Shown here in pieces: positions 10,455 through 14,667 of a stretch of DNA of 64,000 bases. The stretch lies in the NCBI RefSeq assembly GCF_002854065.1, contig NZ_CP024147.1; one strand, written 5' to 3'. Position numbers and translations under genes: made by a program. The notes under the pieces are model-generated. The model was not told the origin of the DNA. It made no database searches and saw only the letters and a list, made by a program, of their open reading frames with translations. Source of the stretch: Escherichia coli. GTDB taxonomy: Bacteria > Pseudomonadota > Gammaproteobacteria > Enterobacterales > Enterobacteriaceae. The first letter of the stretch is position 1. Every line of letters starts with the position of its first letter.

Positions 10455-11177
10455 ATGGGTAAAACCCAGCCCTTGCCAATATTAATTACTGGCGGAGGTC
10501 GTCGCATCGGCCTCGCCCTTGCATGGCATTTCATTAATCAAAAGCAACCGGTGATTGTCAGCTATCGGACACACTATCCAGCCATTGATGGACTGATTAA
10601 TGCAGGTGCGCAGTGTATTCAGGCTGATTTTTCGACCAACGACGGTGTGATGGCGTTTGCCGATGAAGTACTAAAAAGCACCCATGGTCTGCGTGCTATT
10701 TTGCATAACGCCAGTGCGTGGATGGCGGAAAAACCGGGTGCGCCACTGGCCGACGTACTGGCTTGCATGATGCAGATCCACGTTAATACCCCATACCTGC
10801 TCAACCATGCGCTGGAAAGATTACTGCGTGGGCACGGACACGCCGCCAGCGATATCATTCACTTTACCGATTATGTGGTGGAGCGCGGTAGCGACAAGCA
10901 TATTGCGTATGCTGCAAGCAAAGCGGCACTGGATAATATGACCCGCTCGTTTGCCCGCAAGCTGGCACCGGAAGTGAAAGTGAATTCTATTGCGCCATCG
11001 CTGATCCTGTTTAATGAACATGATGATGCCGAATATCGACAACAGGCGCTGAATAAATCACTGATGAAAACCGCGCCTGGCGAGAAAGAAGTGATCGACC
11101 TGGTCGATTACTTACTTACCAGTTGCTTTGTCACCGGACGCAGTTTCCCACTTGATGGCGGTCGTCATCTGCGTTAA
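10455..11177 (+). CDS. folM: Dihydromonapterin / dihydrofolate reductase (short-chain dehydrogenase family)
   Basis: 240 aa; N-terminal TGGGRRIG Rossmann motif; matches folM (ydgB). Confidence 0.9.
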   Translation: MGKTQPLPILITGGGRRIGLALAWHFINQKQPVIVSYRTHYPAIDGLINAGAQCIQADFSTNDGVMAFADEVLKSTHGLRAILHNASAWMAEKPGAPLADVLACMMQIHVNTPYLLNHALERLLRGHGHAASDIIHFTDYVVERGSDKHIAYAASKAALDNMTRSFARKLAPEVKVNSIAPSLILFNEHDDAEYRQQALNKSLMKTAPGEKEVIDLVDYLLTSCFVTGRSFPLDGGRHLR

Positions 11178-11509
11178 TGCAGCTTTATCCAGCATATAAT
11201 CAACACCCATGCGCTTATCCCCCAACACGCAACAGAACCAACAAAAGCAGCGGGTAAGCGCATCATTCCGGTGAAATACCACAGTGACACCAGGTAAACA
11301 AAATAGGGAATAATCGACCACATGCTAAAAATGATGGTTGCACGCAAGGCTTCGATGCCACGTTCGCTGGCAACAATATAATGCGCGATGAGCGCAAAGG
11401 TCGGGAAAAGTGGAATCAGCCCGGCGATATAATAATTTTTCGTTTTTGCTAAAACACCAATCAACAGCACTACCAGCGCACCGAGCGCGGCTTTGATTAC
11501 CAGCCCCAT
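11174..11509 (-). CDS. ydgC: GlpM-family inner-membrane protein
   Basis: 111 aa hydrophobic protein, convergent with folM; the two stop codons overlap in TTAA at 11174..11177. Confidence 0.85.
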   Translation of the reverse strand: MGLVIKAALGALVVLLIGVLAKTKNYYIAGLIPLFPTFALIAHYIVASERGIEALRATIIFSMWSIIPYFVYLVSLWYFTGMMRLPAAFVGSVACWGISAWVLIICWIKLH

Positions 11510-11637
11510 CTTTTTACCTTAACACTTCCATAACAAGTCATCAGTAGAATACCTGATGAAAACTTGTTTAGAAACGATTGATAGTAAGTAAAAACAGCGC
11601 GGTGTATTGTGACGTTTTTATATCTACCGTGAATGTT

Positions 11638-12357
11638 ATGAACACTATCGTATTTGTGGAAGATGATGCGGAAGTCGGTTCACTGATTGCCGCGTACCTG
11701 GCAAAACATGATATGCAGGTTACCGTAGAGCCGCGCGGCGACCAGGCCGAAGAAACCATTTTGCGAGAAAATCCGGATTTGGTGTTACTCGACATCATGC
11801 TACCAGGCAAGGACGGCATGACCATTTGTCGTGATTTACGCGCAAAGTGGTCCGGACCGATTGTTCTTCTAACCTCTCTCGATAGCGATATGAACCACAT
11901 CCTGGCACTGGAAATGGGTGCCTGCGACTATATTCTCAAAACGACGCCCCCTGCTGTTTTGTTAGCGCGTTTACGTTTGCATTTGCGTCAGAATGAGCAA
12001 GCCACACTGACCAAAGGTCTTCAGGAAACGTCTCTGACTCCCTACAAAGCCCTGCATTTCGGCACGTTGACCATCGATCCCATCAACCGCGTAGTCACCC
12101 TGGCTAACACTGAAATCTCGCTCTCGACAGCTGATTTCGAATTATTGTGGGAATTAGCTACCCATGCCGGGCAAATCATGGACCGCGATGCATTGCTGAA
12201 AAATTTACGCGGCGTCAGTTATGACGGACTGGATCGTAGCGTGGACGTGGCTATTTCGCGGTTAAGAAAAAAACTGCTCGATAACGCCGCAGAACCTTAT
12301 CGCATTAAAACTGTGCGTAACAAAGGCTATCTTTTTGCGCCTCATGCATGGGAATAA
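11638..12357 (+). CDS. rstA: Two-component response regulator (OmpR family)
   Basis: ORF-track frame 11578..12357; start moved to the ATG at 11638 (MNTIVFVEDD), giving 239 aa with receiver and winged-helix domains. Confidence 0.9.
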   Translation: MNTIVFVEDDAEVGSLIAAYLAKHDMQVTVEPRGDQAEETILRENPDLVLLDIMLPGKDGMTICRDLRAKWSGPIVLLTSLDSDMNHILALEMGACDYILKTTPPAVLLARLRLHLRQNEQATLTKGLQETSLTPYKALHFGTLTIDPINRVVTLANTEISLSTADFELLWELATHAGQIMDRDALLKNLRGVSYDGLDRSVDVAISRLRKKLLDNAAEPYRIKTVRNKGYLFAPHAWE

Positions 12358-12360
12358 GCG

Positions 12361-13662
12361 ATGAAAAAACTGTTTATCCAGTTTTACCTGTTATTGTTTG
12401 TCTGCTTCCTTGTGATGTCTCTGCTGGTTGGGCTGGTGTACAAATTTACCGCCGAACGCGCGGGCAAACAGTCGCTGGATGATTTGATGAACAGTTCGCT
12501 GTATCTGATGCGCAGCGAATTGCGTGAGATCCCCCCACACGACTGGGGTAAGACGCTGAAAGAGATGGATTTAAATCTCTCTTTCGATCTGCGTGTCGAG
12601 CCACTGAGTAAATACCATCTTGATGATATTTCCATGCACCGACTGCGTGGCGGCGAAATTGTCGCCCTGGACGATCAGTACACGTTTTTGCAGCGTATCC
12701 CGCGCAGCCACTACGTGCTGGCAGTTGGTCCTGTTCCTTATCTTTATTATCTCCATCAGATGCGATTGCTGGATATCGCCCTGATCGCTTTTATTGCTAT
12801 TTCCCTCGCCTTTCCGGTGTTTATCTGGATGCGTCCGCACTGGCAGGATATGTTAAAACTGGAAGCAGCGGCGCAACGATTTGGCGATGGGCATCTCAAT
12901 GAACGTATCCACTTTGATGAGGGTTCGAGCTTTGAACGACTTGGTATCGCATTTAACCAGATGGCGGACAATATCAACGCCTTGATTGCCAGCAAAAAAC
13001 AGCTTATTGACGGTATCGCTCACGAACTGCGAACACCGTTAGTGCGCCTGCGTTATCGACTGGAGATGAGCGATAACCTGAGCGCCGCCGAATCCCAGGC
13101 GTTGAATCGTGATATCAGTCAACTTGAAGCTTTAATTGAAGAGCTGCTGACTTATGCCCGACTCGATCGCCCACAAAACGAGCTTCATCTTAGCGAACCA
13201 GACCTGCCGTTGTGGCTATCAACGCATCTGGCAGATATTCAGGCAGTAACGCCCGATAAAACGGTACGGATAAAAACGCTCATGCAAGGCCATTATGCGG
13301 CGTTGGATATGCGCTTAATGGAGCGCGTGCTGGATAATTTGCTCAATAACGCCCTGCGCTACTGCCATTCAACGGTTGAAACCAGCCTGCTACTGTCGGG
13401 GAATAGAGCGACATTAATTGTTGAGGATGATGGCCCAGGGATTGCCCCAGAAAACCGCGAACATATCTTTGAACCTTTTGTTCGCCTCGATCCCAGCCGG
13501 GATCGCTCAACCGGCGGCTGCGGGCTGGGGCTGGCAATTGTCCACTCTATAGCACTGGCAATGGGCGGTACGGTTAATTGTGACACCAGCGAACTGGGTG
13601 GTGCCCGCTTCTCGTTTAGCTGGCCGTTATGGCATAACATCCCGCAATTTACCTCTGCTTGA
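12361..13662 (+). CDS. rstB: Two-component sensor histidine kinase
   Basis: 433 aa; two transmembrane segments, HAMP, H-box (HELRTP) and ATPase motifs; immediately downstream of rstA. Confidence 0.9.
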   Translation: MKKLFIQFYLLLFVCFLVMSLLVGLVYKFTAERAGKQSLDDLMNSSLYLMRSELREIPPHDWGKTLKEMDLNLSFDLRVEPLSKYHLDDISMHRLRGGEIVALDDQYTFLQRIPRSHYVLAVGPVPYLYYLHQMRLLDIALIAFIAISLAFPVFIWMRPHWQDMLKLEAAAQRFGDGHLNERIHFDEGSSFERLGIAFNQMADNINALIASKKQLIDGIAHELRTPLVRLRYRLEMSDNLSAAESQALNRDISQLEALIEELLTYARLDRPQNELHLSEPDLPLWLSTHLADIQAVTPDKTVRIKTLMQGHYAALDMRLMERVLDNLLNNALRYCHSTVETSLLLSGNRATLIVEDDGPGIAPENREHIFEPFVRLDPSRDRSTGGCGLGLAIVHSIALAMGGTVNCDTSELGGARFSFSWPLWHNIPQFTSA

Positions 13663-13704
13663 CACTACGCGCACGGTGGTCAAGTCACCACCACTGTGCT
13701 ATAA

Positions 13705-13727
13705 AAGAAGGATGTTGTAACTAAAGT
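13705..13727. other. Replication terminus (Ter) site, TerB-like, overlapping the tus promoter region
   Basis: AAGAAGGATGTTGTAACTAAAGT contains the conserved Ter core GTTGTAACTAA; location just upstream of tus matches TerB. Flanking bases differ slightly from the TerB sequence as I recall it. Confidence 0.6.
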
Positions 13728-13737
13728 GGTTAATATT

Positions 13738-14667
13738 ATGGCGCGTTACGATCTCGTAGACCGACTCAACACTACTTTTCGCCAGATGGAACAAGAGCTG
13801 GCTGCATTTGCCGCTCATCTTGAGCAACACAAGCTATTGGTTGCCCGCGTGTTCTCTTTGCCGGAGGTAAAAAAAGAGGATGAGCATAATCCGCTTAATC
13901 GTATTGAGGTGAAACAACATCTCGGCAACGACGCGCAGTCGCTGGCGTTGCGTCATTTCCGTCATTTATTTATTCAACAACAGTCCGAAAATCGCAGCAG
14001 CAAAGCCGCTGTCCGTCTGCCTGGCGTGTTGTGTTACCAGGTCGATAACCTTTCGCAAGCAGCGTTGGTCAGTCATATTCAGCACATCAATAAACTCAAG
14101 ACCACGTTCGAGCATATCGTCACGGTTGAATCAGAACTCCCCACCGCGGCACGTTTTGAATGGGTGCATCGTCATTTGCCGGGGCTGATCACCCTTAATG
14201 CTTACCGCACGCTCACCGTTCTGCACGACCCCGCCACTTTACGTTTTGGCTGGGCTAATAAACATATCATTAAAAATTTGCATCGTGATGAAGTCCTGGC
14301 ACAGCTGGAAAAAAGCCTGAAATCACCACGCAGTGTCGCACCGTGGACGCGCGAGGAGTGGCAAAGAAAACTGGAGCGAGAGTATCAGGATATCGCTGCC
14401 CTGCCACAGAACGCGAAGTTAAAAATCAAACGTCCGGTGAAGGTGCAGCCGATTGCCCGCGTCTGGTACAAAGGAGATCAAAAACAAGTCCAACACGCCT
14501 GCCCTACACCGCTGATTGCACTGATTAATCGGGATAATGGCGCGGGCGTGCCGGACGTTGGTGAGTTGTTAAATTACGATGCCGACAATGTGCAGCACCG
14601 TTATAAACCACAGGCGCAGCCGCTTCGTTTGATCATTCCACGGCTGCACCTGTATGTTGCAGATTAA
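13738..14667 (+). CDS. tus: DNA replication terminus site-binding protein
   Basis: ORF-track frame 13726..14667; start moved to the ATG at 13738 ([10 protein letters not shown]), giving 309 aa. Confidence 0.95.

Follow-up and report, generated by a model that had tools for sequence, protein, structure and literature searches.

Results

Two convergent gene pairs interlock at their stop codons

The DNA examined here is a 64,000-nt stretch from Escherichia coli (RefSeq assembly GCF_002854065.1, contig NZ_CP024147.1; referred to below as the window), in which two convergent gene pairs, folM/ydgC and tus/fumC, run into each other: the two stop codons of each pair interlock within a single TTAA tetranucleotide. 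The first pair is made up of the coding sequence (CDS) for dihydromonapterin reductase, folM (10455..11177, plus strand, an annotated open reading frame (ORF) of 240 codons), and that for a GlpM family protein, ydgC (11174..11509, minus strand, annotated, 111 codons). The second pair consists of the CDS of tus, which encodes the replication terminus site-binding protein (13738..14667, plus strand, a 309-codon ORF that has the same ATG start as in K-12 and matches PF05472), and that of fumC, which encodes a class II fumarase (14664..16067, minus strand, annotated, 467 codons). In the TTAA at 11174-11177 the last three bases (11175-11177) are the folM stop TAA and the first three (11174-11176), read on the minus strand, are the ydgC stop TAA; the plus strand at 11166-11182 reads CAT CTG CGT TAA TGC AG. 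The TTAA at 14664-14667 (plus-strand context GTT GCA GAT TAA CGC) is built alike, its last three bases (14665-14667) being the tus stop and the reverse complement of its first three (14664-14666) the fumC stop. Apart from the stop codons, the two genes of a pair share only the wobble position of each gene's final sense codon, and for this reason no amino acid is dual-coded at either overlap.

A sequence-only reading of the window had pointed out the interlocked stops, and its observation is confirmed both by the sequence and by the RefSeq annotation of K-12. In MG1655 identical 4-nt overlaps are annotated for folM (b1606, 1680976-1681698) and ydgC (b1607, 1681695-1682030) and for tus (b1610, 1684259-1685188) and fumC (b1611, 1685185-1686588); an offset of 1670521 converts window positions to MG1655 coordinates. 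Both overlaps are also annotated in the near-identical strain CUWW06. When a 5.7-kb query was placed on 5426 complete E. coli genomes, 5414 of them matched it with at least 80% coverage, and the gene names were confirmed.

The overlap is the shortest that the genetic code permits

By enumeration, convergent overlaps of 1, 2, 3 or 5 nt are impossible and 4 nt is the minimum, which requires one of the four tetramers CTAA, CTAG, TTAA and TTAG (YTAR), that is, 4 of 256. Random sequence yields such an overlap at least 7 times as often as it does one of any given length from 6 to 11 nt. Both sites belong to this class: the genes lie on opposite strands and share exactly 4 nt, the tetramer is TTAA, and both ORFs of each pair are genuine genes, with orthologues reaching their C-termini in up to 80 species. 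The same four tetramers are named in the sections of Lillo & Krakauer 2007 (PMC2174442) that treat convergent overlaps, where the length distribution of such overlaps jumps at 4, the tables put about 670 of 1890 overlaps from 58 genomes in this short kind, 58 convergent overlaps are counted in E. coli, and it is already argued that terminators must then sit within the partner's coding sequence. The arrangement given there, two opposite-strand stops in one YTAR tetramer, is identical to that at our two sites, and neither folM/ydgC nor tus/fumC is mentioned by name in those sections. Taking into account that the class has been described since 2007 and that the pairs stand in public annotation and overlap catalogues, the overlap as observed is already known and ordinary.

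There are 11 convergent junctions in the window, of which eight have spacers of 24-50 nt (after 431, 2260, 4426, 20839, 33317, 45163, 50524 and 63884), two are the TTAA overlaps and one is abutting (ydhK/sodC, TAATTA). Each of the eight spacers is filled by a single GC-rich palindrome (GACGGCCTCCGCAGAGGCCGTC in the tqsA-pntB spacer is an example), and these palindromes look like shared bidirectional terminators; the folM/ydgC and tus/fumC junctions are without one. Two 4-nt overlaps within 3.5 kb of each other amount to no more than a mild local excess, the class itself being common.

One junction is frozen in register, the other only kept tight

To follow the junctions across Enterobacteriaceae we used 80 Tus loci, one per species, out of 264 that were found; the ends of all four proteins were placed by tblastn and then extended to the stop. 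In 41 of the 42 species in which both folM and ydgC were scored, the two genes overlap by 4 nt (CTAG in 16, TTAA in 12, TTAG in 12 and CTAA in 1), the sole exception being a 7-nt overlap, TCAGTGA. The register of this junction is frozen and its letters are free within YTAR, which is the expectation from purifying selection on two protein ends together with a doubly constrained central TA.

The tus/fumC junction is tight, ranging from a 14-nt overlap to a 35-nt gap, in 79 of the 80 species, and its TTAA state is not conserved. A 4-nt overlap was found in 42 species (Escherichia, Citrobacter, Salmonella, Kosakonia and others), a 0-nt overlap (TGATTA) in 17 (Enterobacter, Lelliottia), an 11-nt overlap in 16 (Klebsiella, Raoultella), a 14-nt overlap in one, and gaps of 10 nt in two species and of 35 nt in one. 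In the remaining species, Klebsiella indica, a 3.8-kb insertion (L060 6934-10799) separates tus from fumC; it holds, as judged by eye only, an ORF resembling MFS-type transporters, convergent with tus, and an ORF resembling enolase-superfamily dehydratases. Five distant Tus lineages (36-58% identity) keep the protein motif (I)PRLHLY. Three of the five have a canonical GC hairpin directly after the tus stop, with T-runs in L085 and L088, and in one distant lineage the tus/fumC spacer measures 74 nt.

Transcripts run on into the partner gene

According to the sequence-only reading, overlaps of this kind leave no room for a terminator. This holds for the spacer, in that neither junction has a hairpin there and a consensus scan detected no canonical intrinsic terminator near either of them; it does not hold for termination as such, the signals sitting inside the partner ORF (Rho-dependent regions and, for fumC, a stem-loop in tus). 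A search of Rfam over 10000-16500 at E <= 1 returned no family, save one chance match to a snoRNA.

The published K-12 data of Adams et al. 2021, who mapped 1078 Rho termination regions with bicyclomycin, place exactly two such regions within MG1655 1681000-1686999, both on the minus strand. One is antisense to folM at 10589 (MG1655 1681110), about 585 nt past the ydgC stop, with a Rho score of 3.64 (p 2.4e-5) and upstream/downstream reads of 74/17 in untreated and 79/66 in bicyclomycin-treated cells. The other is antisense to tus at 14374 (MG1655 1684895), about 290 nt past the fumC stop, with a Rho score of 5.62 (p 5.8e-7) and reads of 83/16 and 36/39, respectively. By these scores read-through rises at both sites upon inhibition of Rho. 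The curated Term-seq list of the same study has no 3' end in MG1655 1681000-1686999 under three growth conditions, and none of folM, ydgC, tus and fumC is mentioned in the supplements of Yan et al. 2018.

Further evidence for overlapping transcripts comes from two sources. In the ExcludonFinder study (NAR 2025, PMC12288877) folM-ydgC and tus-fumC are among 165 convergent excludons of MG1655, a list of pairs whose transcripts overlap in 50% or more of the 58 RNA-seq sets. Huang et al. 2020 captured RNase III-cut double-stranded RNA (dsRNA) with p19 and recovered it from tus, folM and ydgC; dsRNA reads amounted to 140-683 reads per million (RPM) for tus, up to 870 for ydgC and 18-33 for fumC, and the antisense/sense values in total RNA were 12.3/26.6 for tus and 3.9/103 for fumC. 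Sense RNA from tus stood at 22.0 RPM in rnc-14 vs 26.6, and fell to 8.6 in rnc-38. The published duplexes include one of 22 bp at 11133..11154, within the last 15 codons of folM and 20-41 nt past the ydgC stop, a perfect duplex of 21-22 nt at 10729-10749, one at 14175..14195, inside tus and about 470 nt past the fumC stop, and a stronger one near 14001-14021, also inside tus, which is without an exact match in this strain. Taken together, the minus-strand Rho regions in folM and tus, the excludon list and the RNase III-cut dsRNA bear out the claim that transcripts run into the partner gene; termination before the overlap on both strands, the outcome that would have counted against it, is not what the published data give for the minus strand. 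Overlap of 3' ends is in itself unremarkable: Conway et al. 2014 found it in 276 of 370 convergent operons, with a mean of 286 nt, so that it is the norm even where the spacer holds a terminator.

Within the ydgC 5' half lies the best sigma-70-like match of the region (11355-11382, plus strand, ATGCCA-16-TATAAT, 10/12), which points towards rstA. Published RNase III duplexes at 11409-11429 and 11475-11495 are located directly downstream of it. The high dsRNA signal of ydgC may come from a transcript directed towards rstA instead of from folM read-through.

Rho prefers RNA that is C-rich, G-poor and unstructured. The first ~120 nt after the folM and tus stops have these properties: counted in 78-nt windows, the folM read-through RNA, which runs antisense to the 3' end of ydgC, begins (11178..11294, plus strand) with 26 C and 12 G, then 25 and 16, and the tus read-through RNA, which runs antisense to the 3' end of fumC, begins (14668..14784, plus strand) with 30 C and 17 G, then 27 and 18. 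We regard both stretches as candidate Rho utilization (rut) sites.

A predicted fumC stem-loop lies within the final codons of tus

Ten nt past the fumC stop, the fumC 3' untranslated region (UTR) begins a predicted RNA stem-loop (14610..14653, minus strand) with a stem of 12-13 bp, including one G.U pair, and an 18-nt loop (dG -29.2 kcal/mol, z -4.9). It is followed by GGUUUAUAAC, which is no real U-tract. The stem-loop is antisense to tus codons 291-306, its arms corresponding to Q292-A-Q-P295 (CAG GCG CAG CCG) and R302-L-H-L305 (CGG CTG CAC CTG). When 120 nt at the tus/fumC junction were folded, z was -3.3 on the plus and -3.65 on the minus strand, and none of 200 shuffles was as stable; at the folM/ydgC junction no significant structure was found on either strand (z -0.5 and +0.16). 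Across the 80 species the median z of the 80 nt past the stop was -2.57 for fumC and -0.18, -0.77 and -0.95 for tus, ydgC and folM, respectively, and a stable stem-loop without a U-tract directly past the stop was seen for fumC only.

Several comparative measures, taken over 79 species where pairing was scored, suggest that the stem-loop is kept as RNA, and on the minus strand. These are: (i) pairing is seen in 96.5% of hairpin cells when the minus strand is scored, vs 85.5% for the plus strand; (ii) five of the 12 pairs show double changes (CAA/TTG, TCG/CGA, GCG/CGC, ACG/CGT and GAG/CTC); (iii) in 500 shuffles not one of the five measures used was ever reached, and slid controls pair at 19-44%; (iv) the arms are the two 4-codon blocks of tus with the lowest synonymous diversity (0.30 and 0.37 vs a gene mean of 0.74), the loop codons standing at the gene mean with 0.76, and only 1 in 200,000 random sets of eight tus codons was as low as the arms; and (v) codon choice in the arms is skewed, with R302 being the rare CGG or CGA in 92% of species vs 17% at other conserved arginines, A293 being GCG or GCA in 100% vs a 56% background, and H304 being CAC in 91% vs 46%. 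In Klebsiella indica the outer pairs of the hairpin have decayed and the inner pairs are kept, with the ACG/CGT pair compensated.

We had considered the restriction of G.U pairs to the minus strand as an argument for strand, and this argument is weakened in that G-to-A transitions would yield the same pattern. We argue instead that strand asymmetry is informative only where transversions to otherwise preferred codons are absent, as where A293 lacks GCC and GCT and R302 has CGA in excess. In the five distant Tus lineages the hairpin is absent (z -0.7 to +1.2), and 2-9 of the 12 pairs can form in the four lineages in which the arms could be placed. As the simplest reading of this distribution, the ancestral tus/fumC pair would have had a terminator in its spacer, and the Escherichia-Klebsiella-Enterobacter clade would have lost the spacer and kept the fumC stem-loop by codon choice in tus.

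Three other hairpin candidates are probably confined to E. coli, namely a 12-bp long-range inverted repeat on the folM read-through RNA (11209-11220 / 11252-11263), a hairpin at 11094-11108 on the ydgC read-through RNA and one at ~14699-14717 on the tus read-through RNA. We treat all three as not conserved because the z of the 80 nt past the respective stops is unremarkable across species and some of the codons involved are variable (45-80 species).

Discussion

We consider it probable that both overlaps are ordinary interlocked stops whose transcripts are ended inside the partner gene, by Rho on the minus strand according to published data and, as we infer, on the plus strand as well, with the antisense RNA and dsRNA arising as by-products and fumC having, on comparative grounds, its 3' hairpin within the neighboring ORF. 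Interlocked YTAR stops, the shortest overlap that the code permits, are also the commonest kind of convergent gene overlap. Such an overlap costs the proteins nothing, because only stop codons and wobble bases are common to both genes, and it is hard to leave, because both stops depend on the central TA; positions 1 and 4 can drift between Y and R. In the absence of a spacer, each mRNA would run on as untranslated antisense RNA in the partner gene and be terminated there. For ydgC and fumC the published K-12 data show that Rho stops the minus-strand transcripts roughly 585 and 290 nt past their stops, and that the read-through RNA forms duplexes with the mRNAs of folM and tus, which RNase III cuts. 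For folM and tus, the ~120 nt directly after the stops, C-rich and unstructured, may serve Rho as a loading site. The stem-loop of the fumC 3' end, of a sort that other convergent pairs keep in the spacer, appears to have been placed in the last 18 tus codons, where it might protect the 3' end of fumC RNA and perhaps terminate weakly, leaving Rho to complete termination downstream. Any regulatory cross-talk between the partners would be a by-product, and a regulatory effect on Tus or FumC is hypothetical.

A number of observations weigh against this explanation in one part or another. On the plus strand, Rho-dependent ending of folM and tus read-through at the C-rich stretches is suggested by base composition, and Adams et al. 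2021 report no plus-strand Rho region for folM or tus. Past the Rho region in tus there are still p19 duplexes (~14000-14195), which implies that some antisense RNA reaches further or begins inside tus. With regard to the hairpin, all four nucleotides occur at the third position of R302 in the Klebsiella/Raoultella clade, indicating that the constraint is relaxed there, and G is the last base in seven of the eight arm codons, so that the tolerance of G.U on the minus strand may partly reflect mere G-to-A transitions. Finally, the Term-seq data of Adams et al. contain no steady-state 3' end at the hairpin base, where the protective-hairpin model should yield one near MG1655 1685120-1685131, in any of three conditions; this may be due to low fumC expression.

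A different scenario is that the overlaps were selected as regulatory devices. Under this scenario the pairs would be true excludons, with transcription of one gene repressing its neighbor by polymerase interference or by RNase III cleavage of the paired 3' ends; induction of fumC would lower Tus, and ydgC and folM would exclude one another. Both pairs are indeed in the convergent excludon list, tus is rich in p19-captured RNase III products and has antisense RNA at about half the level of sense RNA, and the tus/fumC junction is tight (a 35-nt gap to a 14-nt overlap) in nearly all species. However, the offset between tus and fumC is not conserved, distant lineages have a 74-nt spacer and canonical terminators, 75% of convergent operons overlap anyway, and the sense RNA of tus does not rise when RNase III is mutated, neither in rnc-14 nor in rnc-38, where it falls. 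We consider selection for regulation unlikely on these grounds, and the antisense effects on tus and fumC expression suggested in the sequence-only reading are hypothetical. That reading had further raised the collision of RNA polymerases, and head-on collisions at the junction could in principle end both transcripts, as has been proposed for bidirectional terminators that lie between convergent genes of E. coli. The genes are convergent without a spacer, and the hairpin adjoins the tus/fumC junction as it should in a model in which a hairpin positions the collision. Yet minus-strand read-through is bicyclomycin-sensitive, that is, Rho-dependent, and ends 290-585 nt inside the partner; discrete 3' ends at the junctions are absent from the curated Term-seq list; the published model needs high traffic on both genes, and tus, folM and ydgC are weakly expressed; and the folM/ydgC junction has no significant structure (z -0.5 and about +0.2). 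Collision is unsupported by these data and strikes us as very improbable.

Misannotation could account for overlaps of this kind without any biology, if one stop per pair had been mis-assigned and the true proteins were shorter. Nothing was found that favors this, other than that ydgC encodes a small membrane protein of unknown function. Against it, all four proteins have tblastn matches in other genera that include the final residue, no C-terminal residue of Tus varies among the close relatives aligned, and over 80 species the position of the stop tracks the end of the protein. We give this possibility next to no credence, and we return to interlocked stops with termination inside the partner gene as the explanation of choice.

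The excludon concept reportedly goes back to Sesto et al. 2013. From published data both pairs have the features of convergent excludons, in that their transcripts overlap (as seen from the list, the Rho regions and the antisense reads) and RNase III-processed dsRNA is recovered from them (PMC12288877 for the listing). What differs is that the mutually exclusive expression by which excludons are defined is putative for both pairs, and that the overlap begins in coding sequences here, not in UTRs.

For fumC a parallel may be the class described by Dar & Sorek 2018 (PMC6061677), in which a protective stem-loop without a U-tract is followed by a rut site, Rho-dependent termination and exonuclease trimming back to the stem-loop. 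In the fumC read-through RNA the stem-loop comes after the stop and lacks a U-tract, a stretch with more C than G lies directly downstream of it (14508..14585, minus strand, 26 C and 15 G in 78 nt; a candidate rut region with a modest signal), and the bicyclomycin-sensitive region is found ~240 nt beyond the hairpin. Given the missing U-tract, the C-over-G stretch and the Rho region beyond, the fumC hairpin fits this class. It departs from it in that the stem-loop sits in the ORF of another gene, dual-coded with Tus residues 292-305, and in that no steady-state 3' end at the stem-loop base is present in the Term-seq list of Adams et al.

Bidirectional intrinsic terminators between convergent genes have reportedly been described by Ju et al. 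2019. Collision-driven bidirectional terminators, in which a hairpin positions the collision and efficiency needs high traffic, are the subject of a preprint by Wang et al. 2022 (10.1101/2022.10.23.513370). The eight other window junctions with a shared GC-rich palindrome resemble bidirectional terminators, as do the distant tus/fumC loci, and the in-ORF hairpin occupies the corresponding place. Unlike bidirectional intrinsic terminators, both junctions are without a spacer, depend on Rho on the minus strand and have no discrete paired 3' ends that are known; with no spacer, a Rho-dependent minus strand and no curated 3' ends, they do not resemble the collision-driven kind either.

The overlap itself is of little import, as it illustrates a textbook-level rule of compact bacterial genomes. 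Of more consequence is what may follow the loss of a spacer, namely that signals for termination and stabilization shift into the coding sequence of the neighbor. The hairpin at tus/fumC would be a clean and testable case of an RNA structure kept by codon choice in a gene on the opposite strand. A literature search for fumC together with the tus gene, or for fumC together with a 3' UTR small RNA, gave no match, the sequence papers on fumC and tus from the 1980s and the terminator databases being outside that search, and the in-ORF fumC hairpin is the only part of the present findings that might be new. We are evenly divided on the fuller proposal that the last 18 tus codons are dual-coding. 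According to this proposal they would specify Tus residues 291-306 and at the same time a 3'-end stabilizer or leaky terminator of fumC mRNA, which would have arisen by codon choice in an existing ORF, in the Escherichia-Klebsiella-Enterobacter clade, upon loss of an ancestral spacer with a bidirectional terminator; the fate of fumC mRNA and the C-terminus of Tus would constrain each other, and induction of fumC would flood tus with antisense RNA. If fumC read-through truly modulated Tus, metabolism under the control of oxidative stress and iron would be linked to replication fork trapping, a link that is hypothetical.

Other features of the window

Two Ter-like sequences lie near or in tus. 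At 13709-13726 on the plus strand, 12 nt upstream of the tus ATG, the sequence AGGATGTTGTAACTAAAG has one mismatch to the 18-nt TerB core pattern, with 0.02 chance matches expected. Judged by its position, it is presumably TerB. Tus represses its own promoter via TerB. The second sequence, GTATGTTG at 14652-14659 on the plus strand, equals the first eight bases of the Ter core and falls in the last tus codons (L-Y-V-A); the bases that come next are not those of Ter. This 8-mer is probably a chance occurrence, as about two are expected per window when both strands are counted.

The class I fumarase gene adjoining fumC (16210-17856, minus strand) is named fumB in the CUWW06 annotation, yet it is syntenic with fumA of K-12, which amounts to a naming inconsistency and not to a biological difference. 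CUWW06 (NZ_CP182139.1) is the closest complete genome, with five scattered differences over the first 21.6 kb and divergence from ~21657 onwards. It carries an IS1 in a truncated uidC, apparently not in the window, and its later junctions are offset by 667 nt.

The abutting ydhK/sodC junction (54312-54317, TAATTA) is the third convergent junction without a spacer; ydhK ends at 54314 and sodC starts at 54315. The ydhK-sodC pair likewise appears among the published excludons, and antisense to ydhK a Rho termination region is listed at MG1655 1723937 on the minus strand.

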